Origin: Macrostomum lignano
Taxonomy: Eukaryota
DNA length: 64,000 nt
Assembly (NCBI GenBank): GCA_002269645.1
Contig: NIVC01000030.1
Span: 1 to 64,000 of the forward strand
Reading direction: 5' to 3'
The translations under genes and the position numbers were made by a program. Positions 4,831-45,828 of the stretch are shown here, piece by piece. The notes beneath the pieces were generated by a model that did not search any database, was not told the origin of the DNA, and saw only the letters and a list, made by a program, of their open reading frames with translations. The stretch's first letter is position 1, and the number at the start of each line of letters is the position of its first letter.

Positions 4831-5124
4831 CTCTGTTAACAAATGTCTGTCACGTGTTAACTTCAAACAGATTTATTTATTCCTGATTACCTCGTCTGAC
4901 GCTTCTATTAGCCATCACAGCTCGCATTAACTGTCTCATCTGACAGAGTGGATGACCGCGAACCTATCCAGATACAGGGTGAAACAACTTGATGAAGAAT
5001 AAAAACTTACTGATTGAAAAAATGTTTGTTTTATTATATATTCACTTAGCAGAGAATGCTAATATTCAATAACTAGTTGCCCTTTCTTTCATGAACAAAT
5101 TTATTGTTTATTTTAGTGGAGCAG

Positions 5125-5579
5125 AAGGTTTGCTGGACCAGCCTCCTAGATCTTCAATTGCTGGACCAGCCTCCCATAACCCCAGTTGCTGAGCCAGCCT
5201 CCCAGATCCTCATTTGCTGGGCCAGCCTCCCAGATCCTCAGTTTCTTGGCCAGCCTCCCTGATCCTCAGTTGCTGGGTCACCAGCCTCCCAGATCCTCAG
5301 TTGCTGGGCCAGCCTCCCAGATCCTCAGTTGCTTGGCCAGCCTCCCAGATCCTCAGTTGCTGGGCCAGCCTCGCAGATCCTCAGTTGCTGGGCCAGCCTC
5401 CCAGATCCTCAGTTGCTGGGCCAGCCTTTCAGATCCTCAGTTGCTTGGCCAGCCTCCCAGATCCTCAGTTGCTGGGCCAGCCTCGCAGATCCTCAGTTGC
5501 TGGGCCAGCCTCCCAGATCCTCAGTTGCTGGGCCAGCCTTTCAGATCCTCAGTTGCTTGGCCAGCCTCCCAGATCCTCA
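5125..5579. repeat. 28-bp minisatellite (CCTCCCAGATCCTCAGTTGCTGGGCCAG), left part, interrupted by the LTR element
   Basis: Tandem units stop at ...AGATCCTCA|TGATG and resume at 16280. Confidence 0.95.
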
Positions 5580-6650
5580 TGATGTGTTCCTTATTACCAG
5601 TCCTCAACTGTAATCAAGGAACAATCACTTCTAGCTCTGTAGCTAGGCAACCCAGTAATCAAATGAAGGTATTCAATTACCTTTGAGTCCTTAAATGAGA
5701 GCTCTCGTAATAATCCTCGTCCGTAGTATCGCGATCAGTAACTTTCCTGTCCTTCAGGAAGTTTAGGCGCCTGGTAACAGTTGATCTGGTCCGTTATCTC
5801 CTTTGTCCTCTTGACTTCTTGCCGGCCGGTATCTGTAGTTCGGACCAATAAGAAGCTTCCAAATTAACAATGGGACCCTGCGCCAAACTGCGGTTTAATA
5901 TAAGCCTACTCCTTCTAGTAGTGCCTCTATGCACTCTAGGTATGGCTCCGGAAACCACTGATAGTCTTCTAAGATCTATCAGGGGCAGTCCTTCTGGAGA
6001 CTGCAACCAGTGGAGTCTAAACAGACTCAAGAGTCTCAGCAGACTCAAATAAACTCAAGTCTCAATAGACTTGAGCGAGACGTCTCAACCAACGGGCGCA
6101 AATGAGTAAGGCTTACCGCAAGAACTCGTCCACGACGCGAGTTTCTTCAGGAAGGCTTCACTAGAGCTTCCTCTTCGGAGCTTCTCTCCTTGGAGATTTT
6201 GGCTCCGGGTCCGTTCCGGACCACTTGTATTTATAGGCGTTCAGACCTCTCTCGAGGTCGTACATCACTGTCTTCGCAAATGTCAAAGGGTCACGATTCG
6301 GTGGCTGTCAAGCATGACAGGGTAGAAAGTTGCGCAACTAGTCTACTGTAAAAGCGCATGATTGGTTACCGTAGCTGGTAGACTTTGATTGGTTCATCCG
6401 GGTGCAACCCGAGTGCAAACAAAATGATGACTTGAAGGTGGGGTTTGAATTGACAGTTGTTGGTCGCACGTGATTGGGTGATTTCTAAAATTAGCATGCT
6501 CGAGGTCTCTCTCTTCCTATTGGTTAGTCCGAATATACTTATAGTTCAAAGCATACCTTTATTCATGCTCTTCAATTTACTACTAAATAAAATGTGTGAG
6601 TAGTACATTAACACTTTTATGTCTTCTTACGGGAGGTAGAACACTCTACA
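5580..6650 (-). repeat. 3' LTR (1071 bp), sense TGTAGAG...ACATCA
   Basis: By eye matches 15206-16279 except for 3 single-base indels; TATAAATA at 6228-6235 (-); preceded on the sense strand by the purine-rich ATGGGAGATTT (weak PPT candidate). Confidence 0.97.
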
Positions 6651-6868
6651 AAATCTCCCATGTTTACAAAAAACTCGTCCCGAGTTTTAAATAGAGGATT
6701 GAAACGCATAAAAAGTTCAAGCATGTCTTTATAATAATCATTTGTCACAAGTGTTACAGGTATTTAGTAATGGGTAGTTAAGAGCGTTGGTTATAAAAGT
6801 TATTTAAAGGTAAGTATACGCATGCAAATAAAATGTTTTTGGTTACAGTATTGACATGTGCGCCAAGA

Positions 6869-7081
6869 CTAACAATAGGCGCACTGCCGCAAACTACTTC
6901 TACCTATCGGGCAATTCTGCCAGAGCTGAATATAATGTGAGTCGCTTAAATATTGTCCGCATATGCGATGTCTGTTTTCACAAATAATTGGTGGCTTGAC
7001 AGCCAAGTCATCAGTTAAACATATTGGGCATTCGTAGAGTTGCTGTAGTTGGGGCGCCTGTTTGGACAGTGCGTTGCCCAT
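6869..7081 (-). CDS. Small accessory protein: N-myristoylation motif (MGNALSK) plus degenerate C3HC4 RING finger
   Basis: CPIC-x11-CENRH-x2-CGQY...CPIG spacing resembles SINA/SIAH-type RINGs; ligands 6 and 8 are TAT and GGT, each one change from TGT; a further CAYC at the C-terminus. Confidence 0.6.
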   Translation of the reverse strand: MGNALSKQAPQLQQLYECPICLTDDLAVKPPIICENRHRICGQYLSDSHYIQLWQNCPIGRSSLRQCAYC

Positions 7082-7192
7082 TGTCGTCGTCGCTTGAAGT
7101 TTGAAGTCGCTCAGATTAGTCGCCTCTTACGACAAGCTTGCGAAGCTGTAGAGCTATTCTGACCCGGTCTCTACACGGGTTGTTTTCGCAAC

Positions 7193-10100
7193 TTAACGAG
7201 GTCGCAGATTGTAGCCATGTTGCTGGTTCTCGGTTGATGTTTGTGTCTCCTCGTGTTTTGTTGCGATGTGGCGGTTCGCCGAACGCGTGCGATCAGCGTT
7301 GTCTAGTGACGGTAAAAACGTTGTCGTGTCAGTGTTGATCTTCTTTAGTCGATGAATGTGCACGTAGAATTGGTGCTGATGAGGATCTTGCACATTGGCC
7401 AGGCGTGCCGTTGTCGGTGACGTTAGTTGGACCACTCGATATGGTCCTTTGTACTTCTGTGCGTGTTTGTGCGTCTGTTGCGGCGGATAGTGCAGGTAGA
7501 CGATGTCGCCGGCTGTCAGAGTTGTCGATCTCGTGTCGGTGCCGGTGGTTAGAGCCACCTGATTGTCGATGTTGTGCTTGGCTACTTTCCATGCGAGGTG
7601 TAGTTGCGTGACGAACTTTTGAATGGACGTCGGGACTTCCACATATTGCGATGGTAGTAGTTGCTGTGCCAATAGGTTTGGCGGCTGGAAGTCTCGCCCA
7701 AACATTAGAAAGAATGGCGTATTGTCCGTTGATCGATGAATAGCGCTGTTGTAGGCCATTGTTACTGCTTGCAGATAGATGATCCAGTCGTCCGGTTGTT
7801 GATGCGCGAAGTGTGTAATCATCTCGTGTAGGTTGCGGTGAAACCTTTCAACCATGTTCGCCTTCGGATTGTAGGTCGATGTGTAGATCTGCGTGATGTT
7901 GAGGATCTTCACCACTTGCTGAAAGAGTTGAGACGTAAACTGCGATCCATTGTCCGATGTGAGGTTCTTTGGCGTACCGTACTTGCAGATGATGTCGTTG
8001 AAGAAACCCATTGCCACTGTCTGAGCTGTGATGTCCGGTATTGGTATGGCAATAGCAAACTTTGAGAAAATGTCCAAGGCTGTTAGGATGTAGGTGTAGG
8101 CTATGCCATGGAGACAGCTCGGTGGCAGCGGTCCGGTGATGTCGATGCTGAGACAGTCCATAGTTGTTGACTTTGGTATCGATTGTAGCTGTGGTTTTTG
8201 TCGTCGTCCTGTCTTCGATGCTGCGCATGAGTGGCAGTTGTTGCAATACTGCTTGATGTCGCCATGCATGCTTGGCCAAAAGTAGTATTGCTCCACTCTT
8301 GCAATGGTTTTGGCTGCCGACAGGTGTCCAGCGAGTGGGTTGTCGTGCAGCTCGTTGAGAATTGCCTGCCTAAACGAATATGGCATGTAGATTTTAGGTT
8401 TGTTGTCACTCATCCAGTAGAGTCGTGACTTGTTGATTGTTAAATGTTGTCGCTGCTTGCGCAGGAATTTTCGTTCCACGGGGCTGAGCTTGATGTCCTT
8501 GTCGTTGTTTTTAACTGCTATGTAGAAGTTGTCGTGTTCCGTCTCATCCACCAATTCCTTGATGTTAGGGATTGGATGAATGGCGTTGACTTCGTAGGCT
8601 CTTGACAGGGCGTCCGCGGCCTTGTTAGTAATTCCTGGTTTGTAGACGAGCTTGTAGTTGTAGTCCTGGATCTTGAGTGTCATCCTGATGAGTCGGTTGT
8701 TTGTTTGTCCTTTTGTAGTTACGACGTAGGTCAGCGGTGCGTGATCTGTGCGTACTATCGTCTGTAATGGAGATCCATAGATGTAGTAGTGAAACTGTCG
8801 TAGGGCGAACAGAACTCCTAGTAGTTCTCGTTCCGTAGCTGACCATTTTGTCTCATTCGGTTTAAGTGCTCGACTGACGTAGGCTATAGGTCGTTCCTTT
8901 TTGTCTTCAGTTTCCTGTAGTAGGACTGCTCCGAGTCCCGTTCCTGAGGCGTCTGTCTCGATGATGAAGGGTTTGTCGAAGTCCGGATGCTGTAGCAGTG
9001 CGTCTGATGTCAGCTGTCGTTTGATTTCGTCAAAACTTTCTTGTTGCTTTTGTGTCCAATTCTCCTGCTTCCATTTGTCGAACTTGAGCAGGTCGTACAG
9101 CGGCTTTGCTGTCTTCGCGAAGTTGGGTAAGAACTTTCGGAAGTATTGCGCAAGTCCAAGAAATGATTGGACCTTCGTTTTGCTAGTTGGCGTAGGAAAC
9201 TTTTTCACTTTATCCACGTTGTCTGGGTCCGGTGAAATTCCTTTGGCTGTCACCTGATGTCCCAGGTAACGCACGTTGTCTCGGAAGAATTTGCATTTAG
9301 TTGGTTGTAGCTTCAGACCTTGACGTTGTATAAGCGCGAGGGCCTTCTCCGTCGCTTCATAGAGTCGTTCGAAGTCTTCTCCGTAGGCCAAGATGTCGTC
9401 AACATAGTGCAACAGGTTCGTGCATCCTGCAAGCATGTATGCTGTTAGTCGGCTCATCGTTGCTGGGCTGTTGCTGAGTCCCATCGGCGATCGATTGTAC
9501 TCGTATACTTGTCCATTGTAGGTTTTGAAAGCCGTGTACTGTCGTGACTCTTTCTCGATTTCAATTTGCCAAAATCCATGACGTAGATCGAACACTGTGA
9601 ACAATTTTGCCGTGTTGAGCTTTGCTAGTAGTTCGGAGATCTTCGGTAGGCTTTGCTGATCCGTCGGTATGTACTTGTTCAGTAGTCTGAAGTCACATAC
9701 GAGTCGTCTTTCGTTAGTCTCCTTCTTTTGCACCAAGAGACATGGTGATGAGTATGCTGAAATGGCTTTGCTGATGATGCCGTGTTTCAGCATTTTGTCG
9801 ATAATCTCATCGAAGTGCTGTTGCAGATGCTTGGCGATCGGGTACGGTTTGCACTGAATTGGTTCCGTGTGCGGCAGAAGTTTGATTTCCTGTTTGATGT
9901 CCTTGGCTCGTCCGATGTCGTAGTCATGGTGGCAGAAAGCGTCGTTGTACTTCCACAACAGCTGTCGAACTTTCCTCTTTTGCTGTTCCGTAATCGGGCT
10001 GTCATCCAAATTGATCTTCTTTTGAAATTCTTCCTCTGTTAGTCGTGGAGTCGCTTGCTCAATCAGCATAACCGATGCTTGGGTGTTGAGATGACCGATG

Positions 10101-10924
10101 CACATTCCTTGTCGTAGATGAACCGTTTCTGTGTTCGGGTTGAATATTTGTACTGGCAGCTGTTTATCTTTTGCAACCAGTACTAGTGCCGTAGGCATCA
10201 TAATTTGGTGTTTAGCCGTGACTCTTCTGTTTGGGTCGAATATCATTGCTTCCTCCGTTGCGTTAGTTGCCTTTGCCTTTATCCAGCAGGCGCTCTCCGG
10301 TTGGATGATGACATCTTGTTGCAATGTTACTTTTGGTAGTACTCGGATCTGGTTGATCAATGGTTGTTCTACCGAGTCGATCTTGAACGTTTGCTTATTG
10401 AAGTCGAAGGTCAATGGTAGTCGAAGCTGCTTGAACGTGTCGATGCCAACAATAACGTCCTGGTTTGGGAGTCTGTCGATGACGTACGTTGGAACTGTCA
10501 AATGTTTATTAGCGATTCTTAAATCAATGTCGGCTTTTCCCAGAATGTTTAGCGAATGTCCTCCTGCTCCTGCAACTGCGATTGTTGCTGGCCGTAGAGC
10601 AAGTCGTAGCTTGTTGCACAGTTGTTTTGATATAACTGTGATGGAGCTGCCGGAGTCGAGTAGCGCTCGACATGGTAGATTGTTGATTACCACTTGAGCC
10701 ATGGCTTTGCCAATTTCGGCGTGTAGAGTACATACGTAGTTCTCTGGCCATTTTGGGTCTTGCTGTTCTGCTTGATAGTTAGGTGGTTGTATTCTTGGTG
10801 CCGTTGGTGTTGTCGGAATCGATGGATATAGCCGCGTTGCTAGTGTCGGTTGCCCTTGAACCTCACGATGTGCAGTTTCTGTTAGTTCTAAACTGTTGTC
10901 GCCTTCCGTTGTCGTTCTTTGCAT
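7193..10924 (-). CDS. pol: Pol: late-domain linker, aspartic protease, dUTPase-like remnant, RT, RNase H, integrase with GPY/F (frame open from 11233; first ATG after env at 10924)
   Basis: ALLDSGSS; YVDD; FIIETDASG/ERELL/TDH/ADALSR; HHCC (HDNPLAGH..CHSC); D(SIDIT), D(SDNG), E(MVERF); GPYRVV; no stops over 3.7 kb. Confidence 0.97.
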   Translation of the reverse strand: MQRTTTEGDNSLELTETAHREVQGQPTLATRLYPSIPTTPTAPRIQPPNYQAEQQDPKWPENYVCTLHAEIGKAMAQVVINNLPCRALLDSGSSITVISKQLCNKLRLALRPATIAVAGAGGHSLNILGKADIDLRIANKHLTVPTYVIDRLPNQDVIVGIDTFKQLRLPLTFDFNKQTFKIDSVEQPLINQIRVLPKVTLQQDVIIQPESACWIKAKATNATEEAMIFDPNRRVTAKHQIMMPTALVLVAKDKQLPVQIFNPNTETVHLRQGMCIGHLNTQASVMLIEQATPRLTEEEFQKKINLDDSPITEQQKRKVRQLLWKYNDAFCHHDYDIGRAKDIKQEIKLLPHTEPIQCKPYPIAKHLQQHFDEIIDKMLKHGIISKAISAYSSPCLLVQKKETNERRLVCDFRLLNKYIPTDQQSLPKISELLAKLNTAKLFTVFDLRHGFWQIEIEKESRQYTAFKTYNGQVYEYNRSPMGLSNSPATMSRLTAYMLAGCTNLLHYVDDILAYGEDFERLYEATEKALALIQRQGLKLQPTKCKFFRDNVRYLGHQVTAKGISPDPDNVDKVKKFPTPTSKTKVQSFLGLAQYFRKFLPNFAKTAKPLYDLLKFDKWKQENWTQKQQESFDEIKRQLTSDALLQHPDFDKPFIIETDASGTGLGAVLLQETEDKKERPIAYVSRALKPNETKWSATERELLGVLFALRQFHYYIYGSPLQTIVRTDHAPLTYVVTTKGQTNNRLIRMTLKIQDYNYKLVYKPGITNKAADALSRAYEVNAIHPIPNIKELVDETEHDNFYIAVKNNDKDIKLSPVERKFLRKQRQHLTINKSRLYWMSDNKPKIYMPYSFRQAILNELHDNPLAGHLSAAKTIARVEQYYFWPSMHGDIKQYCNNCHSCAASKTGRRQKPQLQSIPKSTTMDCLSIDITGPLPPSCLHGIAYTYILTALDIFSKFAIAIPIPDITAQTVAMGFFNDIICKYGTPKNLTSDNGSQFTSQLFQQVVKILNITQIYTSTYNPKANMVERFHRNLHEMITHFAHQQPDDWIIYLQAVTMAYNSAIHRSTDNTPFFLMFGRDFQPPNLLAQQLLPSQYVEVPTSIQKFVTQLHLAWKVAKHNIDNQVALTTGTDTRSTTLTAGDIVYLHYPPQQTHKHAQKYKGPYRVVQLTSPTTARLANVQDPHQHQFYVHIHRLKKINTDTTTFLPSLDNADRTRSANRHIATKHEETQTSTENQQHGYNLRPR

Positions 10925-10932
10925 TATGGCAT

Positions 10933-12775
10933 TCACTGTCTTCTTAGCTTTGGACAAGTTTGACTGAAGCACCGTACGATCGACGAAATGATGAAGATTG
11001 CCGTGACAATCCACACAATGCAAGCACCGTAGAAGATGAATCCTTGATAGAGACTGCCTCTTCCATTGAGCAGCTCCCAGAAGCTGTTTGTCCAAAATGA
11101 TTTGATGGCGCTGTCCATTGAAACAAGGACGGGAAATCTTCCTGTCCCGGTTCCTTTGTCCTTTCTTGTGAACAGCTGGTGAATCATCTTGCGTTGGGTG
11201 ATGAACGCTTGCAAGAAGTCGTTGATCGTCCATCCTGGTGTTATCTCGTCAAGTTGGATATCGGCGAATGGCGTATACTTCGTTCTGTTGAATCGGATTT
11301 TCAAATCCTCCATGTCGTAGTTTTCGTCGACGATTACTTCCGGTTCTGTGATGTTTGCTGTCGTTCCAGTTGTTTTGATGACGTGTAGTGCATTGTCCAG
11401 TTGATAATAGTTTGCTGCCGTGGTGCAAGGTCTCGGTATTGCGGTGCCAACGATGATGTTGTGTACCGTGTCCAAGAATCCCTGAATTCGTTTTCCTTCG
11501 TAGAACGCTTCAATCCTTGGCTTGTCGTAGCAGGTTGTTGACGTGTTCGACGGCAAGATGTTAAAGTGCTGTATCGGCGTGCACTTGTATATCAACAGAT
11601 GCTCGTATATTGGAACTGCCAAAACGTTCGTCATTCCGGTGATTTTACGAAAAGTCATCGTAGGGTTGACATAGTAGTTTTGTCTGGCATAATTTAAGTT
11701 GATTGCGTGCATTTTGCAAGTTAGCTGGACCAGTGTTCGATGCAAGTGGTTTAACTGGTTGTGTAGATTGTGATCCAAAGCCGTTATCTTTGCTGACAGT
11801 AGTCGGTTTGACACCAGTTTGGGACGTTCGATGTCACGTCGTCGTCTGTTCTGTTGTTCCTGCTGTTGATACGTTCCGTTGATGATCGCCAGAAAGGTTT
11901 GTTTGTCGTCATCTTTTACGTAGACTGGTATCTCTTGTTCCGAGATGAATAGTGTCTTGTCTGTATCCTTGCATTTCAGTTTTTGCTCGACTGGTTTCTT
12001 TTGAAACGTCAGTGCCAAGTCTCCTGACTTTGCCAAAAACGTGTTTGACAGTAGACCTCCTTCAACTGTGTGATACTTTTGAAGCTTGCAGTCAATTTCC
12101 GGCTCAACTTCCCACGCGAAGAAGTATTGTCGTGACTTAGATGGTTCTTCATATCGTGAGTCGCCTCTGCGTATATTTGCCATCGATAGTCTTGATGATA
12201 TGTTGGACTCAACGGTAAGCTGTATAGTTCCTCATTCCGCAGTATCGGCGTTGGACACCATCCTTTGCTGTATCGGCAGTCACTTAATTGCAGTTGTAGC
12301 GACTCCATTTTTTCAAAAGGATTGTGGTAGAATGGAATATTCCTGATTAGGTAACTGTTTCGTGTCATGTAGTTAGTCCATGCTTCCGAAAAGTGTACAT
12401 ATCGTCCGTTTGCTGAGTTCTTCGTTCGGTAAAGTTGTGCCTCCCCCACTTTCTCATCCGGTTCTAGCTGACCATCCTTTGAGAACAGTGTTTGGTTCCA
12501 TTGTAGACATTCAGCGTGCGACACATGTAGTTCGTGTTGCCAAAATCGAATTCTGTTCCATTGTCCTCGCCAAACTTTTTCCACTAGGTGCTTGTCTCTA
12601 AAGCACACTATTCCGAGTTGTCGATGCTTCTTGATGTTAGCTTTGTAGAGATCAATTGTGATCTTCTTTGGCTTCGTCTGATTTGTCTTGAAGTAGCTGC
12701 ATTTGATGTCGGTTGGTATCTTGTAGATCATCGGTTGGATATGCGCATCCGTTGGACATATCATTGGTTTTCCAT
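10933..12775 (-). CDS. env: Envelope glycoprotein, class III (herpes gB/chuvirus G-like) fusogen candidate, ~614 aa, split by a -1 frame step near 12225
   Basis: ORFs 12009-12890 and 10933-12183 join into a Cys-rich ectodomain (PMICPT, DCRYSKGWC, YFFAW, central helix ending LTC, NPT, CTPI, CYDKP, GFLD, RPC). It has several N-x-S/T sequons, a furin-like RRRR site, an aromatic membrane-proximal segment and a C-terminal TM (FIFYGACIVWIVTAIFIISSIV). Confidence 0.8.
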
Positions 12776-14509
12776 TGCTGTTGCTTTGGTGACTACTGCC
12801 GTCAGTAGTATTATGATGATCCAGAATATCCAGAATCGCCATTTTCTGAACGTTGCCGTTGTCTTTGCTGGCATTGGCTGCGGCTGCCATTCGTTATCTT
12901 CTGCGTCCGCATCGTATTCTTCCTCTTGTTCCATTGGCGTTTCCGAGCGCAAGGCATCCGATTCGTTCCGCTGCTTGTCGTCTTCATCATTTTCGTCCTT
13001 GCTTTCTTCCGATGTTGTAGTTTTGTCACTCCATTGTCTGCGGTACCTCACTTCGGCCTTGTAGTCGACCGTTTGAATGTAGGCTTCACCATTTCGTTTA
13101 TATCGGATCTCGTAGCATTGATCGCTGTCGGAGCTTAGATTTCTTTCTTCCATTCCTTTGTGCCTTCCGTCTTCATGTTCTTTGTCGGCGGCTCGGTTGT
13201 CATCAGCGTCATTGTGCATCTCATAATCGTGATCGCTGCTTTCTTCTTGCTGTTCTTCTTCCATCTCTGTATTTCCGTCGTTGCTTCTTTCTTTGTCATC
13301 CTTCGTTGCCAGTTCTTTGTCGTTGCCTTTGTTTGTTTCTTCTTTTCTTTCACTGATGTCGCTTGGCAATGTTTTTTCTGTGCTCACTTCTGTCTTTTCT
13401 TCTTCGCTGTCAATGTTAGTTTCTTTCATTTCGACCATGCTGATGTTTTTTGTCTTTTCGCTGCTCTCCGCATCGAGCCAGTCGATTTCATTGATAGTGA
13501 AGTCCATTTCCAAGTCGTCTATCGTGAAGACTTGCTGCTCTTGCTGTTCGCTTTCCGGTGTGTACGTGATGGCGTTTGCATATCGTTGCATCGCTTGCGT
13601 TGGTTGCTTGGGCATGTATCTGGCGTTTCGCGGTCTGTAGCCATTGTTTCCGAAGCGTTTCGTGTTTTGCTGCTGCCAATTTTGATGTTGTTGCCATGGT
13701 TTTTGCGGCTTCCTTCTGTTGAATGGCTGTCGCTGCATGTCATTTCTTGTTGACCGATGAGGACAATGTATTTGGTAGTGTCCTTCTCGTCCACAGTAAT
13801 AGCATCTGGCTTGGGCTCGTTCATTTCGTCTTTTTTGTTCGGCGATAACGGCTGTTTGATGTTGCATCAATTTGTTTAGTTGCTGTGTCAGTTTCTGCAC
13901 TTCTGTGTTGCCGGTTGTCATTAGTGGAGCGCTTGCTTCCCACTGCATTCCGCACCGTAAAAGGTCTTCCTCGGTTTCAATGTTTTCGCGTAGAAGTCTA
14001 TCTCGGAGTGACGGCTGTGCATTGTTTATTACGTGCAGAATCAGATTTTGTTCGCGATCCATCAATCGCTGTCGCTCTCTAGCGGCTAATTCTGCCGCAC
14101 CCAGAGGTGGTTGGTCTGCAGCTGGCAGTGTTGGCTGATGCAGTGCCTTAATTATCTGACGGATGTCGTCCACAAAGGTCAGGAAGGATTCGGTTGGCTG
14201 CATCCTTCTGTTATGCAACTTGTGCAGTAGCACTGATCTGTTTGTGCCACAGCGGTTGAAATGCGCGCGCAGTTGAATGATTAATGCTGGGTAGTTTTGC
14301 TGTGTTGCCGCATCTAGTTTACCATAAATCTCTCGTGCAGTGCCTTGGAGGAGTGGTGGCAACAGTTGCGCTTTTTCTGGATTTTGTAGGTTGTATTCCC
14401 TACATACCAGGTCAAAATGATCAACAAAGGTGTTAAAGTCTTTTTCCATAGAAAAGGTGCCAACTGTCTCTTTGATATCTCTGTGCACCGTTGGATTGCG
14501 CCGCGCCAT
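12761..14509 (-). CDS. gag: Gag (capsid plus CCHC nucleocapsid), followed by an acidic spacer and an in-frame internal signal/TM helix
   Basis: Retrotransposon gag-like helices (FVDHFDLVC..LLQGTAREIY; MQPTESFLTFVDDIR); zinc knuckle CYYCGREGHYQIHC; C-terminal RKWRFWIFWIIIILLTAVVTKATA. Confidence 0.93.
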   Translation of the reverse strand: MARRNPTVHRDIKETVGTFSMEKDFNTFVDHFDLVCREYNLQNPEKAQLLPPLLQGTAREIYGKLDAATQQNYPALIIQLRAHFNRCGTNRSVLLHKLHNRRMQPTESFLTFVDDIRQIIKALHQPTLPAADQPPLGAAELAARERQRLMDREQNLILHVINNAQPSLRDRLLRENIETEEDLLRCGMQWEASAPLMTTGNTEVQKLTQQLNKLMQHQTAVIAEQKRRNERAQARCYYCGREGHYQIHCPHRSTRNDMQRQPFNRRKPQKPWQQHQNWQQQNTKRFGNNGYRPRNARYMPKQPTQAMQRYANAITYTPESEQQEQQVFTIDDLEMDFTINEIDWLDAESSEKTKNISMVEMKETNIDSEEEKTEVSTEKTLPSDISERKEETNKGNDKELATKDDKERSNDGNTEMEEEQQEESSDHDYEMHNDADDNRAADKEHEDGRHKGMEERNLSSDSDQCYEIRYKRNGEAYIQTVDYKAEVRYRRQWSDKTTTSEESKDENDEDDKQRNESDALRSETPMEQEEEYDADAEDNEWQPQPMPAKTTATFRKWRFWIFWIIIILLTAVVTKATAMENQ

Positions 14510-15185: not shown

Positions 15186-15203
15186 GAGAGGGCGAGATCA
15201 CCA
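15186..15203 (-). promoter_or_regulatory. Putative primer-binding site TGGTGATCTCGCCCTCTC
   Basis: Starts with TGG 2 nt after the terminal CA of the 5' LTR; priming tRNA not identified. Confidence 0.6.
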
Positions 15204-15205
15204 AT

Positions 15206-16279
15206 TGATGTGTTCCTTATTACCAGTCCTCAACTGTAATCAAGGAACAATCACTTCTAGCTCTGTAGCTAGGCAACCCAGTAATCAAATGAAGGTATTC
15301 AATTACCTTTGAGTCCTTAAATGAGAGCTCTCGTAATAATCCTCGTCCGTAGTATCGCGATCAGTAACTTTCCTGTCCTTCAGGAAGTTTAGGCGCCTGG
15401 TAACAGTTGATCTGGTCCGTTATCTCCTTTGTCCTCTTGACTTCTTGCCGGCCGGTATCTGTAGTTCGGACCAATAAGAAGCTTCCAAATTAACAATGGG
15501 TACCCTGCGCCAAACTGCGGTTTAATATAAGCCTACTCCTTCTAGTAGTGCCTCTATGCACTCTAGGTATGGCTCCGGAAACCACTGATAGTCTTCTAAG
15601 ATCTATCAGGGGCAGTCCTTCTGGAGACTGCAACCAGTGGAGTCTAAACAGACTCAAGAGTCTCAGCAGACTCAAATAAACTCAAGTCTCAATAGACTTG
15701 AGCGAGACGTCTCAACCAACGGGCGCAAATGAGTAAGGCTTACCGCAAGAACTCGTCCACGACGCGAGTTTCTTCAGGAAGGCTTCACTAGAGCTTCCTC
15801 TTCGGAGCTTCTCTCCCTTGGAGATTGTTGGCTCCGGGTCCGTTCCGGACCACTTGTATTTATAGGCGTTCAGACCTCTCTCGAGGTCGTACATCACTGT
15901 CTTCGCAAATGTCAAAGGGTCACGATTCGGTGGCTGTCAAGCATGACAGGGTAGAAAGTTGCGCAACTAGTCTACTGTAAAAGCGCATGATTGGTTACCG
16001 TAGCTGGTAGACTTTGATTGGTTCATCCGGGTGCAACCCGAGTGCAAACAAAATGATGACTTGAAGGTGGGGTTTGAATTGACAGTTGTTGGTCGCACGT
16101 GATTGGGTGATTTCTAAAATTAGCATGCTCGAGGTCTCTCTCTTCCTATTGGTTAGTCCGAATATACTTATAGTTCAAAGCATACCTTTATTCATGCTCT
16201 TCAATTTACTACTAAATAAAATGTGTGAGTAGTACATTAACACTTTTATGTCTTCTTACGGGAGGTAGAACACTCTACA
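15206..16279 (-). repeat. 5' LTR (1074 bp)
   Basis: Direct repeat of 5580-6650; TATAAATA at 15857-15864 (-); ATTAAA at 15521-15526 (-). Confidence 0.97.
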
Positions 16280-16437
16280 CTCAGTTGCTGGGCCAGCCTC
16301 GCAGATCCTCAGTTGCTGGGCCAGCCTCCCAGATCCTCAGTTGCTGGGCCAGCCTCCCAGATCCCCAGTTGCTGGGCCAGCCTCCCAGATCCTCAGTTGC
16401 TGGGTCACCAGCCTCCCAGATCTCCAGTTGCTGGGCC
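16280..16437. repeat. 28-bp minisatellite, right part
   Basis: Continuation of the 5125-5579 array after the TSD. Confidence 0.93.
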
Positions 16438-16468
16438 ACCTTTTCAAATTCTCGGGCTCTGCACTAAC

Positions 16469-16887
16469 CGTACAACTTCGCCTCGTAGGTCCAGTTAGCA
16501 TTGGCAACCCAACGCGTTTTGACGTCATTAAACTCGGCGATGGGATCCGGAATTATTCCAGCCTGTCGTAAGTCGCTGTAAACATCTCCAGGCACCGAGC
16601 CAGGCACTGAGATCGCACCTACAAAGTTGTTAAGTTTGGTGTCATTTATTTTGTAGAATATCAATCAACTGGGACAGTAAATGCTTCATTTATTGCTCAC
16701 CATCTGAACGGCGCAGAGCCCATTGAACATTTGGCGTATTTAGTGAGATTTTTTGTCGTAATGGCGAATTATAAAATAACGTTTCGCTTTGCACTACTAG
16801 TCTGCCGTTAAACAGTAGAACTGTGAAGACACTATTAAGAAAAATTGTCCAATAGAGCTTGTTCAATGGCCAAACGAGGAGTGCCAT
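16469..16887 (-). CDS. MANBA: Beta-mannosidase (GH2), first two coding exons 16701-16887 and 16469-16618; the remainder is not in the window
   Basis: Signal-like N-terminus, then QKISLN..WALR..G|AISVPGSVPGDVYSDLRQAGIIPDPIAEFNDVKTRWVANANWTY, matching the GH2 beta-mannosidase N-terminus; 82-nt GT-AG intron; donor GTTAGT at 16468. Confidence 0.8.
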
Positions 16888-17789
16888 TAAAGTGATTATT
16901 AGTGCTGTTGTAAGTCTGTTGGAGACAAATAGATGCCTATCGTTGTAAGAGCATTGTATACACATTTATCCAATATCATTATAGCCTGTATCTACGCATT
17001 AACTAACCAATCTATACATATCTACCCATTTAACCACTAACTAACTACGATAATATCCCTTTATCTATCTAATTTATCCATTGCCTACCTAATCTACACA
17101 TCCATCACATCCATCTACATATGGATCACATCCATCTACATACTTACTACCTGGCTACTAACTTCATAATAGTAATAATTATTATGCAGTTCTATCTTAA
17201 CCTATCCGTCACATCATGTGATTTCAGGCATAAAAAATTTGCTCACAGAATGCAATCAGACAGTATACAAAAAGCTCTCACTTACCCGCTTGATACGTGC
17301 GTATTTTATACAGCAATCTAGGTTAGGTAATGTTCCACAGAGACTTTCAGTGTAGAACGAAAAACTCTCTTAAATCTGTGCTTTCATAGAGTTTTAAACT
17401 GTACATGCATACACTCTTATCAACTATACGAAATCAGTTGGCAGTGCATGTACATGCACACAAGTTGTAGTTGTACACTTGTGAGAAAAATATTTGCATA
17501 AACACAACTGCTGCTGCAAAGCACACATGTATTTGCATAGACGTACGCTTGTTAATATTACTGTAAGTCTTGACTTAGATGCAGGGGGCGTCCGGCGGAT
17601 GCAGCGAGGAGGCGGAGGGAGACCGCCCATTCCGCTAGCCCCTGGCGACCAAAGACTTCCGTTGAAGTGGTGTCGCTCAGGGGGACCCGTCGGTCTCGCC
17701 TGCAGCGCGGTCCTCCTCACCAACGGTGGGGAAGAAATCAGCTCGTCCGGTGTCCCTGAGGTACCGGGCGAGCAGCGGGATGCTCTCGG

Positions 17790-20700
17790 GCCTGCAAACG
17801 TCGGAGAGAACCGGGTTTGGCCCGACGTGAGTGAGCCTGGCCCTGGTTGAAAACCTAGCAGTAATAAAGTGCTCGATTTTCACTGCCTGAGCGGCAGAAG
17901 GGGCACCGCTCCTCGGGTACTTGGCCCTGAAGGAAGCGGTGGCGAGAGAAGCAGCCATGCCCGGAGAGGGCCATGCTACCTGCTCTGAGGTCTCTGCGGT
18001 TGAGCCTGAGGAGGGCTCTACGCAGGAGAGGAGAGGGGCAGGGGACGGCCGCACGGGATTGCCTACAATTCCGGGTGTCGTGCCACCTGCGGAGATGCTC
18101 GGAGTCAGTCCAGCGCTTAACGCGGGAGTTGATCACCGAGGCGGGGATGGGGGCTCCCGGGCCCGGCCCCAGCAGCGCGCCGGCGGAGCCAGCCTTGGCC
18201 AGCAGGTCAGCGCGCTTGTTGCCGAGGAAGCCGGCGTGGCCCGGGATCCATCTGAGCTCCACCTGGTTGCCTAGCGCAAGCCCGCGTTGAGCTGGGTGTT
18301 GAAGTCCAGGACGGACCTGGAGCTGGTGGTGCAGCGGTAGAGGGCTCGAAGGGCTGCTTGGCTGTCAGAGTGAAAAATAAATTTCCGACCGCTGAGCTGC
18401 CTTCGGCGCAGCTCTGCCGCGCAGGAGCTGATGGCAAAGCACCTCGCTCTGAAAAACACTGGAGTTAAGCCCAGTGTGCAAGGAGAAGCTCCACACCACG
18501 TCTCCCTTGAAGAAGACGCAAGCTCCGAAGCCTGAAAGACCATGCCTCATAGAGCCGTCAGTGTAACAGTGGACTTCAGAATCGCTCGCGCTGTCGCTCG
18601 CTTCGTGTCGAGGCTGAATAGTGACATTATACCTTTGGCTCAGGAGAAGGGCGGCTGGGATCGAGTCCATGAGGATGTTGAGCCCGCCACACTCCTCGAG
18701 AGCCTTGAGCCAGAGGTCAGAGTGCGGGATAAGCGACCGCTTCTTAAAGGCCCGCACTTTCTTGAAGGCCACCCCAGCATCTAGAAGACGCCGGGTGCTC
18801 TTCGCCGCCTCTCCTTTGATAAAAATATCCAGAGGAGGGGCACAGAGGAAGGCATTCATGCCTTCAAAAGGAGTAGAGGGTGGAGCGCTCATAGACATGC
18901 GGCAAGCTCTGCCCTGGGTTTTGTAAAGAGCGTCGAGGTTGCTCTTGACGCTCAGGCCGCTGGCCCACACGAGGCTGGCGTAACTGATCGAGGGGCGGTT
19001 GATGGCAGTGTAAATCCACCACAGCTTCCTGGGGGTGAGCCCCCAGGTGGTGCCCACGGCGCGCCTGATCTGAGCCAGGACAGCCAGGGATTTTTTAGTT
19101 TTAAGTTCAGTCCAGTTAAGCCTGAGTCCAGTTAAGCCTGAGTGAGGCCCAGGCAGCGGACCTGCTTCTCCATTGAAATATCCTTCTCATAGAGGGTGAG
19201 GGGCCTAATTGTCCAGAGCAATTTGTTGGTAAACATGACAGCTCTGGTTTTCGACTCTGAGAGTCTAAGGCCAAATTGGTTTGCCCAACGCTCCGCTCGT
19301 CCCAGAAAGCCCTGCAGAGGATCTCTAATGGTATCAACCGAGGGGCCCGCGCATATCGCGGTCACATCATCGTCATAGCCCACCTTGAGAATGGGGTCGT
19401 GGAGATCACTGCAAAGCAGCTCATCCAGGACCATGTTCCAGAGAACGGGGGTGAGAACTCCGCCCTGGGGGCCCCCTTTCTGGACAGGCGCCGAAAGAGA
19501 GCTGGCGTTAAGGTGGGCCACTACAGTGCGATTTCGGATCATGAACATGATCCACCGGACAAGGTGAGGGTGCGGAGCCCTGGATTCCAGGGCTCTGCAA
19601 AAAGCCTCGAAGATGACGTTGTCGAAGGCCCCCTCAATGTCCAGGAATAGCGAGAGGGCAAAACCGCTGCCAAGAACGGCCCTCTCCAGGAAGTCAACAA
19701 TGACATGGAGGGCACTCTCGGTAGACCTGCCCGCGCGGAAGGCGTGCTGGTTCTGCAAGAGTGGGAAGCGCTCCAGCTCGACTGAAAGTAGGCGCCAAAG
19801 CACCAGTCTCTCGAGGAGCTTAAGGCAGAAAGAGGTGAGGCTGATAGGCCTGAAGGCCTTCACCGATTGGTAGTCGCTCTTTCCAGGCTTGGGGATAAAG
19901 ACCACCCGGGCCTTCCTCCACGCAACTGGTACATAGCCCAGCTCCACACAAGCTCGAAGGAGACGACAGAGCAGGTCCAGGAAGAGGTGGTTTTTCACCG
20001 CCTCGTGCAAGAACGCTGGGTAGATGCCGTCGGGCCCAGGCGCCTTGAACGGGTTAAAGGACCTTGCCGCTCTAATAATGCGGTCTTTGTTGATCATAGA
20101 CTTGGTTAGGCCTTGCCCTCCCACGGTGTGGTCAGGCGGGCCCTGCTGAGTCGGAGATTTAGGGAAGAAACTGTTGAGCATTAACTCTAGAGTCTCTTTA
20201 GAGCTCTCTGTGACCGAGCCATCAAGTCTCTTCACAACAGAGAGTTTAGAAAAACGGTCATTCGTGAGTGCCTTAACCACGCGGGCTACGGGGCGAGAGC
20301 CCAATTGGTGCCGATTGGCCGTCTTGGCCCTTCTGACTTGGCCCTTAAACTTGTGGATCGCACGGGTATAGGCCTCTATATCAGATGGGTCTTTGGTTTT
20401 GAGCGCTCGCCTTTGGAGGGTCCTGGCTCGGCGCCGAAGGGCCCCGAGCTCTGGGTTCCACCAGGGAGCAGATTTCTTGCCTTTATAGGCCTTTAGAGGT
20501 GTAGAGAAAATACTAACGATTGAAATATGAGATATTTAAATTAGAGTTAAATTGAATCTAAGATAAGCCAGTACGAGCTAAGTGGGCGCAGGGCCCAAAC
20601 AAGTATATTTAAATGACCAATTTAGAGGGGGGTTGACTCCAGATAATAAGGAGAGGGGTGAAGTGCGCGACTGAAGAGAGAGGCGAGAATGGAGAGCCAA

Positions 20701-21400
20701 TCAGAAGGCAGCAAGGGAGAGAGAGATAAGAATAACAAGATTGAGCTCGACAGAGAGAGAGAGAGAGAGAAAACAGAGTAAACAGAGACAAGTGAAGGTG
20801 AACTAAGAAATGACTAGGAAAATCGCGACAAGAGGGCAGGCTGCTTCAAAGGCAGTGGTGATCGCCCCGCCCAGGGAGGAGGCGAGATCTCCACCACCTG
20901 GCAGTCAGAGAGGTCACTGTGGGGGGGGGGGGTCAAGATCCCGAAGGCCGCGGCTCAGCTTCGAGCCAAAGGCGGCCCAATCGGTATTCCTGACGTTCCG
21001 ACTCCAAGTGACCTTAGGCTTTTCCTTGGTCGGCCCAATGCAAAAGCGGATAAAGCGGTGGTCCGTGAGCGAGTCCTCATCCCACACTCGCCAGCCCGTG
21101 ACTGCGGAAAGCAGTCCGGGTGAAGCGATGGTGGTGTCGATGACTTCGGCCCACCGCCCATTATTGAACGTTGGTGCATTGCCCACGTTACAGAAAAATT
21201 GAGGTTTGTGCTGCTGACACAGGCCAGCGGCTCCTCGCCTCTGTTATTGGTGTTCCTGCTGCCCCAATGCAGGTGCTGTGCGTTCACATCCCATGCAATG
21301 AGCAGCTCAAACCGACGGGACGCGGCGTAGTCAATGAGGTTGACTAGCGCGTCGCAGACTACTGGGGCATCGCCTGGGAAATAGGCAGATGCTACCAGCA
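17790..21400 (-). pseudogene. LINE ORF2 (EN-RT-RH), frameshifted
   Basis: Fragments 20955-21401, 20914-21186, 19132-20304, 18365-19057, 17855-18262; RT motif reads YDDD; 16-bp duplication near 19111-19142. Confidence 0.88.
20500..20830. mobile_element. Solo LTR (331 bp) inserted in LINE ORF2
   Basis: TGTAGAG...CGACA termini with perfect 5-bp TSD AGAGG (20495-20499, 20831-20835); removing it restores the frame EAACPLKAYKGKKSAPWWNPEL. Confidence 0.9.
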
Positions 21401-21449
21401 CAGGTTTATTGGGAATGGGCGAGGGGTTGGGCCCAGCTGGGACGTCCCC

Positions 21450-23567
21450 ACCCTCCCTGGACGAGCTGGTGCGCCTAGGCGTCCCGGCGACCTCTCGCCT
21501 CCGCTTGGTGATTTTGGTGGTGCGGACCGCCTCAGCTGCGCGCTGGTACAGCCGCGCCGCTTGGTGCTGCGCGCTGGGCGTCGGTCGCCTCCGCCCTCAG
21601 CAGCGCGCTCAGCTTTTCCCGCGCGACCGTGCTGCCGGGCGGGGCGGTTTGCTTTGGCAGCCTGGGCAGAAGCTCGCGCCTCGGCCCCGGCTGCCTCAGC
21701 ATTCCGCCCGCCCTGCTCACTGCCACGGGGAGGGTCGGCCTCGTAGGAGCGGATGCGCAGCTTCCAGAGGCCGACGTTGATGAAGTTGCCGTGTGGATAG
21801 CGCCTCATCCAGGCGTCCGACAGCCCCAGGATGGCTGTGAAGCCAGTGCCGTCGGTGCGCTTAAGGGTGTCATGCACCACTAGGCCCGCGGCGGGAAGCT
21901 CCCGGTTGACTGCTAGCAGTCCTTTCCGGAGCTCGTCAGCAGAGGTAACGACGCTCCTGGCCGGAACCCAGATTCGATGCCTCTTGGTCCGGGGCGCTCG
22001 TCCTCTCTGCAGAAGGCTAAGTTGAGGTCCCAGCTCTGCTCGGGCAGCAGCTCAAGGAGCCGCCGACCCGAGTCAGCATCACTGGGCCAAATGAGAAGGC
22101 ACGAGTCCCTCGACGCATTCGAATGAATGTTCAGAGGCGTGCCCTTCAGAGTTTGCTTCCACAGGAGGCCATCAATGGCAACTCTCACCTGCTTCAGCTG
22201 GTCGGGAGACAGGCGCGCATGAAGAGTTTGGTCGGGTGGTGATCAGACACCCGAAAACTCCCACTTCCAGACACTTTAAGCCTGGGAACAAAATAGGGTG
22301 TAGTGCACTTACTGGTGCGGGCTCCTCTTCGTTGTAGGGCAGGTTCTCCGAGCTCGTTTCTTCAAATCTTTTTCTCCGGAGGAATCTTTTTGAGGTCTAG
22401 AATCGGCCGAAGGTGAGAGCGTAACAGTGAAATTGACGTCGCAATATTTCATCGAGTGCGGGAATCAATATATTTTTCGAGTGTCAAATCAATATCAATA
22501 GTGCGCCCTAAAAAAACAACTTCTAACACGAGGTCCTCCAAAAGGGGCGTCTTCTTCTAGAAGTAACAGAATCGGACTAGTGTGCTCCTACCGGTTAATC
22601 TAGGATAATCCTAATAAACAATCAATAATCCTCTAAGGGTATCGGAATCGGTCCGCAGATCCTATCCAGTCCCTTAGGAAAATGGGAGGCCTCAAATTCA
22701 AAGGACTCAGTAAAATCAACTGATCAACAATAACGGCCGGCAATAAAATCGCTCTCAGTAATCCAAATACCAAAGGCTCCAACAAAGGCTCACCAATTGG
22801 TTTACTTCTCCCTCAGAGATGTAGCCTCGAGTTGCTTCTGCAGTAAGCTCAAGATGTCTTGAGGCTTGCTCCGAGTCTGAGATTTCAGCTCGGATTGTGC
22901 TTTGTATTTATAGTCAAACTTAGTATATTATTAGTAACTTTGCTCAGATTTCATCATATTTCATCATGGTTGTAATCGTGATTCATATTTCATCATACGT
23001 TGTAATTTGATTCATACCTCATCATAAGTTGTATTCATGGTCTTAAAAATAGAGTATGACAATTTGCAATTTTAAAGCATTCAAGTTTTTCGAATTTTCA
23101 TGTTACTACTTACAGTAGCTCGTAGTTTACTCTGTATCGTATTTGGAGATTTCTACACGCGTCCTTCCCCAGAATGACAACTGCCGGTTGCCTCTTTGCC
23201 GCATCAGCGTGGGAGGCCCGGGGGTCGGTGGAGCCTTCTTCAGGTGGGCTGTCTAGGGCCATCGCCCCAGATTGGGAAGCTTCCGCTGCCGCGGGCCGTT
23301 GGCCCCTGGCGCCGGTTAGGCTTCCGCCCTCCTTGGCCCGCCTCGCCTTATTCAGCCGACGGTGGGCAGCTCCAGAGGTGGTGCTCAGCTGCTTGGCAGC
23401 TGGAGTAGCAGGTGTCTTCTCGGAGACACCGCTCAGAGTTGGCTCCACGGGTCTCGCCGAGGCGTCCCCGATGGTAGCAGGTGGTATGGCCGCGGAGTCC
23501 ACGGCCCCAGCAGAGGCCGGAGGCACTGTGTCATCCACAGCCGGTTGATTTCTTCGGCTAGAAGCCA
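21450..23567 (-). pseudogene. LINE ORF1, split by the 22240-23157 insertion
   Basis: MASSRRNQ...AVVILGKDA continues as PDQTLHARLSPDQLKQVRVAIDGLLW on the other side of the insert, directly upstream of the EN domain. Confidence 0.7.
22240..23157 (-). mobile_element. Solo-LTR-like insertion (~918 bp) in LINE ORF1
   Basis: Sense termini TGTAG...ATCA and TATAAATACAA (TATAAATA at 22905-22912) echo the big gypsy LTR; no clean TSD. Confidence 0.65.
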
Positions 23568-24398
23568 TTGGCTGGAAGTAAAAAGGTGGGACTTCCTGCA
23601 GAACACAGGCAAAGAGTCGCAAGGCCGCAACCCCAAACCAAGCGGCAAGTCCCCAAAAATAAAAATACCACCCTGCGGGGGGACCCAAAAGTGCAAGGGG
23701 AACGAACCGTTAGCGACCAGACTACTCCCTAGCCAAGCGTCCATCAGCACGGAGTTACACTGGGACATCAGAGGGTGCGTTTATATGGTCACACCAGGAC
23801 CCGGCGCAAACGAATCAGCTCGGCAAGGCCCAAGAAGGCCTGCCTTAACAACCACGGGACGAGTAACCATCGTAGTGCGCCTTGCAGGTGAAATTCAGGA
23901 GACGGAGTCTCTTGAGCTATCAGCCCGCCAAGGGAGGCAGGTGTGAGTATCGCTGGCTGGGATAAGGGCCATACCAGTTTCATACTGCACAGCTATTTCA
24001 CCACGCCATTGCGTGCAGGATCCGGGGTCCTGGGGGCAACAGCCCCGGCTATTACTGTAAGTAGTTGCTACAAGAGTTCCAAAAGTCGTGAATATCTTAA
24101 TATTACGGGCGCATGTGAGCAGTGCCATGGTTTTACAATCACCCGGCTCAGAAACGTGCAAATATGAAAACAATTGCATGCAAGCATAAAATTAGCTGGA
24201 CATCTGATACTCGTATATAGCATTGGCTGCATAATTCCTAAACCGTACCAATGAATAATGTATCATACAAGTAGACTTGCTTTTACACTACTTGAAGTAG
24301 TTCAGGCTAGGGAAATGTTAGTAGTTGGAATTGACAACAAGTTTATGGATTTCTATTCAAGTAAAGAGCAAGGACAGAGCAAGGCCAGATTCTGCACC

Positions 24399-45560: not shown

Positions 45561-45828
45561 GAAACATAAACATTGAGCGGTCCGAATTGCTATTGTGAAG
45601 TTTCAAAGGACCCGAGGGTCGGATAGAGAGGCTTCACGGGCTGAAGCGGACAGTGCATTAGTAAAGGTGTTATATGTCTGTTTGAGTACACTTTGATGAA
45701 ATTAAAAATTTCGCTTTAATTTTTCTGCATGGTTCAGGTGTACAGGTGATAGTACATTTGGATTCTACTGAAGAAAAGATTTCTTTAAAGATGAATAGAT
45801 TTTTCTTTTCGAAATTATCTAATCGTTG

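Follow-up and report, generated by a model that had tools for sequence, protein, structure and literature searches.

A decayed RING-finger gene in a Macrostomum lignano errantivirus marks a tandem double-RING accessory cassette

The window analysed here, a stretch of 64,000 nucleotides of Macrostomum lignano DNA, carries on its minus strand a gag-env-pol LTR element that spans positions 16279 to 5580 (Table 1). The two LTRs of the element differ by 0 substitutions and three indel breaks, and a CTCA target duplication flanks it on both sides (5576-5579 and 16280-16283). Protease, reverse transcriptase, RNase H and integrase follow one another in this order between LTRs accompanied by a primer-binding site, and a class III fusion-protein env sits between gag and pol, both as in gag-env-pol errantiviruses. 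The match of env to PF24664 has E=9e-6 in the window and 4e-5 in a relative, both below the curated cut-off. With the gag-env-pol errantiviruses that carry an HSV/gB-type Env, the element shares gene order, class III Env and Ty3/gypsy Pol. The sections of PMC13524379 covered here report the same layout for errantiviruses of Nematoda, Bryozoa and Platyhelminthes, and supplement file 2 of that paper lists Platyhelminthes_Rhabditophora_Mlig_errantivirus_2 (10,591 nt, 864-nt LTR, 16 copies). Matched by length, LTR size and primer-binding site, that entry resembles a sister subfamily found in this analysis (10,585 nt, 856-nt LTRs), whereas the subfamily of the window differs from it in having 1.07-kb LTRs and a truncated accessory cassette.

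Each of the gag-env and env-pol junctions lies within a single frame in some relative, so the genomic RNA probably makes one gag-env-pol polyprotein, and genes past its stop need another route of expression. In the window copy this frame is broken at three places between 10.9 and 12.9 kb despite the almost identical LTRs, and at one of the three the contigs from all four sequencing runs differ from the window. Errors of assembly may account for some of the frame breaks, or these may be unique to this copy. A search for a canonical heat-shock element in the window LTR and a tRNA search of the window both returned nothing.

Table 1 Features of the errantivirus and its accessory region in the window
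Feature	Position	Strand	Basis or remark
5' LTR, 1074 nt	15206..16279	minus	Self-comparison; TG..CA ends
Splice donor GTAAG in LTR, candidate common donor for subgenomic RNAs	15739..15743	minus	Same donor in the LTRs of relatives
Primer-binding site	15192..15203	minus	12-mer identical to the Mlig_errantivirus_2 primer-binding site (PMC13524379 supplement file 2)
gag region, weak zf-CCHC match	12761..14509	minus	Hydrophobic stretch at its end, ahead of env
env region, class III (gB/Monjiviricetes-like) fusion protein	10933..12890	minus	Frames split in the window copy; PF24664
pol: protease, RT, RNase H, integrase, Ty3/gypsy order	7193..10930	minus	Pfam
Conserved non-coding block, ~68 nt	7113..7180	minus	Holds CAG acceptor candidate (7148-7146), GTAAG and CTAAT
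Truncated first RING gene, myristoylation-type N-terminus	6869..7081	minus	RING1 with 6/8 ligands; stop at codon 71
RING2 relic behind the stop	6812..6868	minus	Likeness to relatives stops near 6820
3' LTR, 1071 nt	5580..6650	minus	Self-comparison; pairs with the 5' LTR

Between the pol stop (7193) and the 3' LTR, where the original prediction had placed a myristoylated RING-finger accessory protein, lies an ORF of 70 amino acids that begins MGNALSK. The sequence bears out the predicted N-terminus, the Cys/His spacing, the TAG and a further Cys/His cluster behind it, as well as the positions of a CTAAT (7119-7115) and of an AG (7094-7093) 11 nt ahead of the ATG. Non-Cys residues stand at RING1 ligand positions 6 and 8 (codons 44 and 60), leaving the window copy with six of the eight zinc ligands that characterise a C3HC4 RING E3. 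The TAG is codon 71, and the cluster past it, in codons 72-86, corresponds to a second RING in intact relatives. From about 6820 onwards ~1.2 kb are missing, comprising the rest of gene 1 along with the entire gene 2; the same interval measures about 1.3 kb in a relative and 130 nt in the window. We do not consider the ORF a chance frame, given that it is the sole relaxed-C3HC4 match among the 102 ATG-started ORFs of at least 60 aa in the window and that relatives carry open, conserved versions. Its stop codon is no assembly error, since a 360-nt contig of run X1 spans 6660-7019 with zero differing letters.

A DNA search in which 40 of 306 candidates were scored returned at least 22 copies of 96-100% identity. 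A complete set of eight RING1 ligands is found in none of the 22 copies (six are kept in 17 copies and seven in four, and one copy is frameshifted at codon 18), and 20 stop at codon 71, the remaining two being frameshifted earlier (at codon 18 and near codon 62). Among these copies the variable sites of the ORF comprise 4 synonymous and 10 non-synonymous ones, compared to 32 and 22 over the final 200 codons of pol, a contrast that is not significant (Fisher p=0.07). The 70-aa ORF is almost certainly what is left of the first gene in an accessory cassette and no longer functions. The suspicion of decay in the original prediction was therefore sound, as the ligands are incomplete in every copy, but the parent was not a protein of ~100 aa, the full gene encoding 222 aa. 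It is very improbable that the 70-aa product has a function of its own, with the deletion followed by selection for a myristoylated mini-protein or decoy. The frame is open to codon 70 in 20/22 copies and the block upstream of it is almost invariant, as such a product would lead one to expect, but given the youth of the sibling copies an open frame carries little weight, no copy has the full ligand set, further ligands and two frames have been lost, and the variable sites are mostly non-synonymous. As the breaks in the cassette are inherited via transposition, the window subfamily has multiplied without an intact gene.

Intact relatives of the ORF belong to a family of proteins of 200-222 aa (216-222 aa for full first genes) that consist of RING1, RING2 and a C-terminal domain of ~115 aa. 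A protein search in which 150 of 212 candidates were scored gave at least 145 matches, and the loci examined hold 131 distinct ORF matches, 41 of them near full length and 31 used in an alignment (A2). In relatives, arrays of one to about seven paralogs lie between pol and the 3' LTR, with two genes each on contigs C282, C240, C583, C2129 and C301, three each on C1063, C391 and C1405, and about seven, partly broken, on C272 and C4009. Wherever the fetched stretches include pol, the array begins right behind it on the same strand (C282, C952, C2121, C272, C4009, C301, C391, C583, C2129, C240, C1405 and C1988); no pol was found within the 10 kb fetched for C273, C1391, C738, C986, C1465, C530, C356 and C66. 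All family matches examined are intronless. The original prediction did not include such a tandem array of paralogs around the RING gene. At one locus (L070, C4009:40464-41521), a mariner-like transposase, as judged by eye, splits the leading RING gene in an array of seven.

Across the 31 proteins of A2, whose mean column identity is 38%, no variation occurs at C21, C34, H38, C41, C44, C60, R61, C67, C70, C79, C86, C101 or in a WP motif, and C18, C57, H83, C89 and C104 are kept in 90% or more. These positions form two C3HC4-spaced clusters with six residues between them. The eight zinc ligands of RING1, six invariant and two at 90% or more in the 31 proteins, have the C3HC4 spacing, and RING1 carries the C-x3-H spacing and a P-x-C-R ending. 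An Arg follows the last RING1 Cys in 34/34 proteins, at the place of a cationic linchpin, and none follows RING2 in the rows where the script resolved the position. First genes show dN/dS values of 0.07-0.28 in the 14 of 36 pairs with measurable dS (22 are saturated), and downstream genes of 0.14-0.67 in the 15 of 91 pairs with pS<0.7, the pairs being non-independent in both sets. In one element that carries two open RING genes the LTRs are 100% identical, which indicates that intact cassettes are mobile too. The intact cassette is a tandem array of paralogs maintained by purifying selection while the elements transpose.

We also considered whether the cassette could stem from a gene taken up from the host, which would travel as cargo, either passive or of benefit to the host, and be selected in its host copies and not in the elements. 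The SIAH-like RING1 and the copies with no pol in the 10 kb fetched would agree with such an origin, which is nevertheless improbable: the matches are intronless, the low dN/dS separates element lineages with young insertions, and a profile search of 1.84 billion representatives yielded, among 188 hits, no cellular protein with the whole architecture except an element-derived gene model and Logan proteins. Beside this M. lignano gene model, three Logan proteins show the whole architecture (E 4e-38 to 2e-33 among the 188 hits) and two further ones show it in part; all five are encoded on contigs of 0.9-2.1 kb and none has a Gly start, and the bulk of the remaining hits match RING1 only. A UniRef protein labelled Macrostomum lignano is 98.5-99% identical to the second RING gene of a relative over 202 residues. 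The resemblance of the distant Logan homologs suggests that the double-RING design is older and wider than one species. A word-based homolog search with the 222-aa protein gave 93 candidates, none at E<=0.001, an exact look-up of 10 family proteins found none in the protein collection, and a scan of JGI metagenomes with the first-gene alignment gave 117 pattern hits, none of which was confirmed.

In a tree of 34 proteins (the 31 of A2 and three Logan proteins) every first-position gene, the distant P0002 included, falls into one clade (100/99); the downstream genes cluster with weaker support (91/93), and the deep joins are unsure owing to long branches. The myristoylation motif with its MGNA start is found in 8/34 proteins, all in one sub-clade, and is missing from the other first-position genes and from three full-length distant homologs, making a gain the simplest account. 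Within this sub-clade the motif (MG-N-A-x-S-[KR]) is kept in three lineages separated by dS of 1.6-2.9, a persistence that renders N-myristoylation of its members plausible. The original prediction saw in the motif and the RING a design like that of arenavirus Z. As a Z-like matrix, a myristoylated RING protein would join Gag cores and Env to membranes and drive budding. Retention of the motif in three lineages speaks for this idea, as does a Gag without an initial Gly, for which a separate membrane anchor is conceivable. Arenavirus Z is a protein of 90-99 aa with a single RING, a myristoylation signal and, at its C-terminus, PTAP/PPxY late domains (PMC3509680, in the sections covered), and only one clade resembles it, in carrying the motif ahead of a RING, whereas the family proteins are twice as long and have two RINGs and a C-terminal domain. 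Motifs of the PTAP, PSAP or PPxY type occur in 0/34 proteins, and a YxxL of the window ORF (residues 50-53) is not retained in relatives. No likeness to Z appeared among the 13 Pfam families hit or among the best 60 of 85 PDB sequences. We therefore give a Z-like matrix little probability.

The RING genes lie behind the pol stop, so that subgenomic spliced RNAs are their most likely templates. Conserved signals suggest that these RNAs probably arise by joining of the 5' LTR donor to acceptors that each precede one of the genes. A joint at 15458-15744 with CT..AC ends, which leads from the LTR donor to a site 285 nt on, is found in contigs of runs X1, X5 and X9 and not X17; it is weak, with a short side of 19-29 nt, and the runs are RNA-like and of unrecorded type. 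P0001, an automated UniRef gene model, fuses LTR sequence up to the donor with the Met of a downstream RING paralog. On the acceptor side, the AG of the original prediction (7094-7093) gives way to a CAG at 7148-7146, the former having its aligned place kept in 4/11 lineage rows and the latter in 11/11. A YAG lies 0-2 nt ahead of the ATG in 10/15 downstream genes, compared to 55/787 (7%) background ATGs, a count that does not represent 15 independent events because the genes are related; the five without an adjacent YAG occupy the third or last position. None of the 15 joints listed (of 29) leads into 7092 or 7145, a result that comes from contigs only and is neutral as to expression. The loose ends listed include none that is leader-like, contig coverage is flat along the element in four runs, and none of the holders of the sequence listed is on record as RNA. 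Trans-splicing of a spliced leader is common in flatworms and was considered as a way to resolve the array.

The conserved block directly behind pol, in which the CAG resides, can be aligned in 11/11 lineage rows whose RING proteins fall to 39% identity. Among the 22 copies 1/68 of its sites is variable, against 7-13% in pol, ORF, UTR and LTR, so that the block is near invariant even though the RING gene that follows it is defunct. An additional cis role, whether in packaging, replication or export, is therefore possible. A structured-RNA role was discarded, as folding z-scores against shuffles were -0.2 to -1.0 in nine copies and no Rfam family matched.

Expression from a spliced RNA would also suit a non-catalytic regulator resembling Rev or CERV, in which the RINGs would be interaction modules and which would control how the unspliced genomic RNA is exported, transcribed or translated. 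CERV of the C. elegans element Cer1 is likewise an accessory protein of a related Ty3/gypsy element, and according to the parts of PMC10309623 covered it is made from a spliced mRNA and required for export of Cer1 genomic RNA; the covered sections of PMC13524379 place Cer1 as sister to a flatworm errantivirus. The window element, too, depends on the export of unspliced RNA and carries a strong donor in its LTR, and a regulator that works in trans would agree with subfamilies that have no cassette. We nevertheless regard such a regulator as unlikely. In the same parts of PMC10309623, CERV comprises H, M and G domains along with a Cys loop but no RING, is a single gene with exons interleaved with gag and an experimentally shown RNA-export function, and is without homologs outside nematodes; one would not expect a single RNA-export factor to show an unvarying Arg of the linchpin type, to come in arrays of divergent paralogs or to include a myristoylated member.

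As a whole, we lean towards a cassette of element-encoded ubiquitin ligases made from spliced RNAs, the putative ligase activity being read from the RING sequences. Of the two functions originally proposed, matrix-like protein or E3 ligase, the ligase is the best reading, based on the RING1 Arg and the likeness to E3 RINGs, with the limit that conservation of zinc ligands and Arg is equally compatible with a non-catalytic RING. The best PDB matches are the RINGs of the E3s RING1B, TRIM5, TRIM21 and SIAH1, and Sina_RING is matched by 27/31 members at E<=0.05, most Pfam RING scores being below the curated cut-offs. The nearest Atlas clusters are viral RING proteins with scores of 0.84-0.88, which are leads only, as the family itself is not recognised. 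SIAH/Sina-type and other C3HC4 E3s and viral RINGs (herpesvirus ICP0, NCLDV) share with the family the RING1 ligand pattern, the C-x3-H spacing and the P-x-C-R ending. Unlike in SIAH-type E3s, a second RING follows six residues on and the SIAH substrate-binding domain is not matched; the C-terminal ~115 residues have no match in Pfam or Atlas.

In RING domains the linchpin Arg sits after the last ligand. It is the most effective linchpin residue for E2~ubiquitin activation in RING E3s, and RINGs that pair up as an active and a scaffold partner have been described (PMC12326332, in the sections covered); a RING2 without Arg fits such a pair within one chain. In the ligases that we envisage, RING1 would recruit host E2~ubiquitin, RING2 would serve as a built-in partner or scaffold, and the divergent C-terminal domain would select the substrate. 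The gain of an N-myristoylation signal in one clade of first genes would have moved that ligase to membranes. With slightly better than even odds, the paralogs differ in the host proteins at which they aim, silencing or restriction factors being the likeliest targets. The paralog arrays, the divergent C-terminal domain, the repeated loss and the exchange of cassettes fit a conflict with the host better than a structural role. Viral RING ligases provide the analogy for targeting of host defence, and the choice of host-defence targets is a guess made on this analogy.

Two highly multiplied subfamilies, with the 70-aa and the 124-aa forms, have no intact cassette, which shows that it is not needed in cis. 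Its function would then be one that an element can do without in cis or that relatives sharing the cell provide. Taken jointly, and tentatively, since we place it somewhat short of even odds, these considerations depict an invertebrate endogenous retrovirus of complex-retrovirus design. It would encode its own array of tandem-RING ubiquitin ligases, expanding and contracting between one and about seven genes, each expressed by alternative splicing from one LTR donor; substrate domain and localisation, with one paralog myristoylated, would have diversified against host silencing or restriction factors, and cassette-less cheater subfamilies, that of the window among them, would be supported by such elements.

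Complex vertebrate retroviruses and large DNA viruses are characterised by accessory genes directed against the host; the accessory genes of HIV recruit ligases of the host and do not encode any. Whereas the backbone of the element has already been catalogued (PMC13524379), the tandem double-RING cassette is apparently undescribed. The main text and seven text supplements of that paper contain neither 'RING' nor 'accessory', and 'zinc' is absent from the supplements and 'zinc finger' from the main text. Among the publications listed by our literature searches, we found no report of RING genes in LTR retrotransposons. ORF3 of bdelloid rotifer LTR retrotransposons (a GDSL esterase or DEDDy exonuclease) is comparable as a captured enzymatic ORF with family-wise gain and loss, but is described in the passages covered as single genes with no arrays of diverged paralogs, and 'RING' has 0 occurrences in that source (PMC5408684). 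The main text of PMC12801592 does not contain 'RING', but transcripts of the double-RING family could be among the 150 'RING' rows in its supplement file 2. The flagged ORF is dead and the Z analogy fails, yet the ORF marks a double-RING cassette of an errantivirus. The cassette adds an orphan RING-RING-helical protein family and offers a natural series of intact, shortened and dead versions in very young insertions. If the ligase reading is true, an element with its own RING ligase array would be a sequence-defined handle on transposon restriction in a regenerating flatworm, and the substrates of the cassette would name host defence factors. M. lignano is a tractable host with established transgenesis (PMC12801592, in the parts covered).

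Shortened and rearranged cassettes were seen at several other loci. The copy L076 (G000 C301:248927-253404) is a deletion derivative in which gag, part of env and the last 75 pol codons form one frame of 1008 aa; most of pol is gone and two open RING genes are kept. About eight copies have RING genes near-identical to those of L076, with the deletion verified in one. The sister subfamily represented by G000 C952:527748-538332 and others (L028, L031-L041) encodes a 124-aa product with both RINGs and without the C-terminal domain, and its cassette has no second gene; at least 11 matches are identical, and the LTRs are 100% identical in the one copy measured. When window positions 5580-11233 were compared with L127/L148 (C240), pol was 98% identical in protein and the LTR side 88% in DNA, while the RING region reached only 76.5% to the C240 lineage and 82% to other lineages; L024 (C3229) was compared as well. 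This mismatch in identity points to mosaic ancestry and suggests that the window element has exchanged its cassette by recombination. On G000 C2121:1-70000, varied family members and fragments form dense same-strand stacks; together with C87 and C1130, which are known from hit lists only, these are possibly trap or small-RNA cluster loci.

The element of the window is inserted in a 28-bp minisatellite that continues on either side (5110-5719 and 16237-16481), and the same unit occurs again at 57.1-57.7 kb. Positions 17400-23900 hold, on the minus strand, fragments resembling a non-LTR retrotransposon (endonuclease, RT and RNase H, from translations judged by eye), and 45823-48128 contain exons resembling a host FAD synthase, with MoCF_biosynth and FLAD1_M above cut-off.
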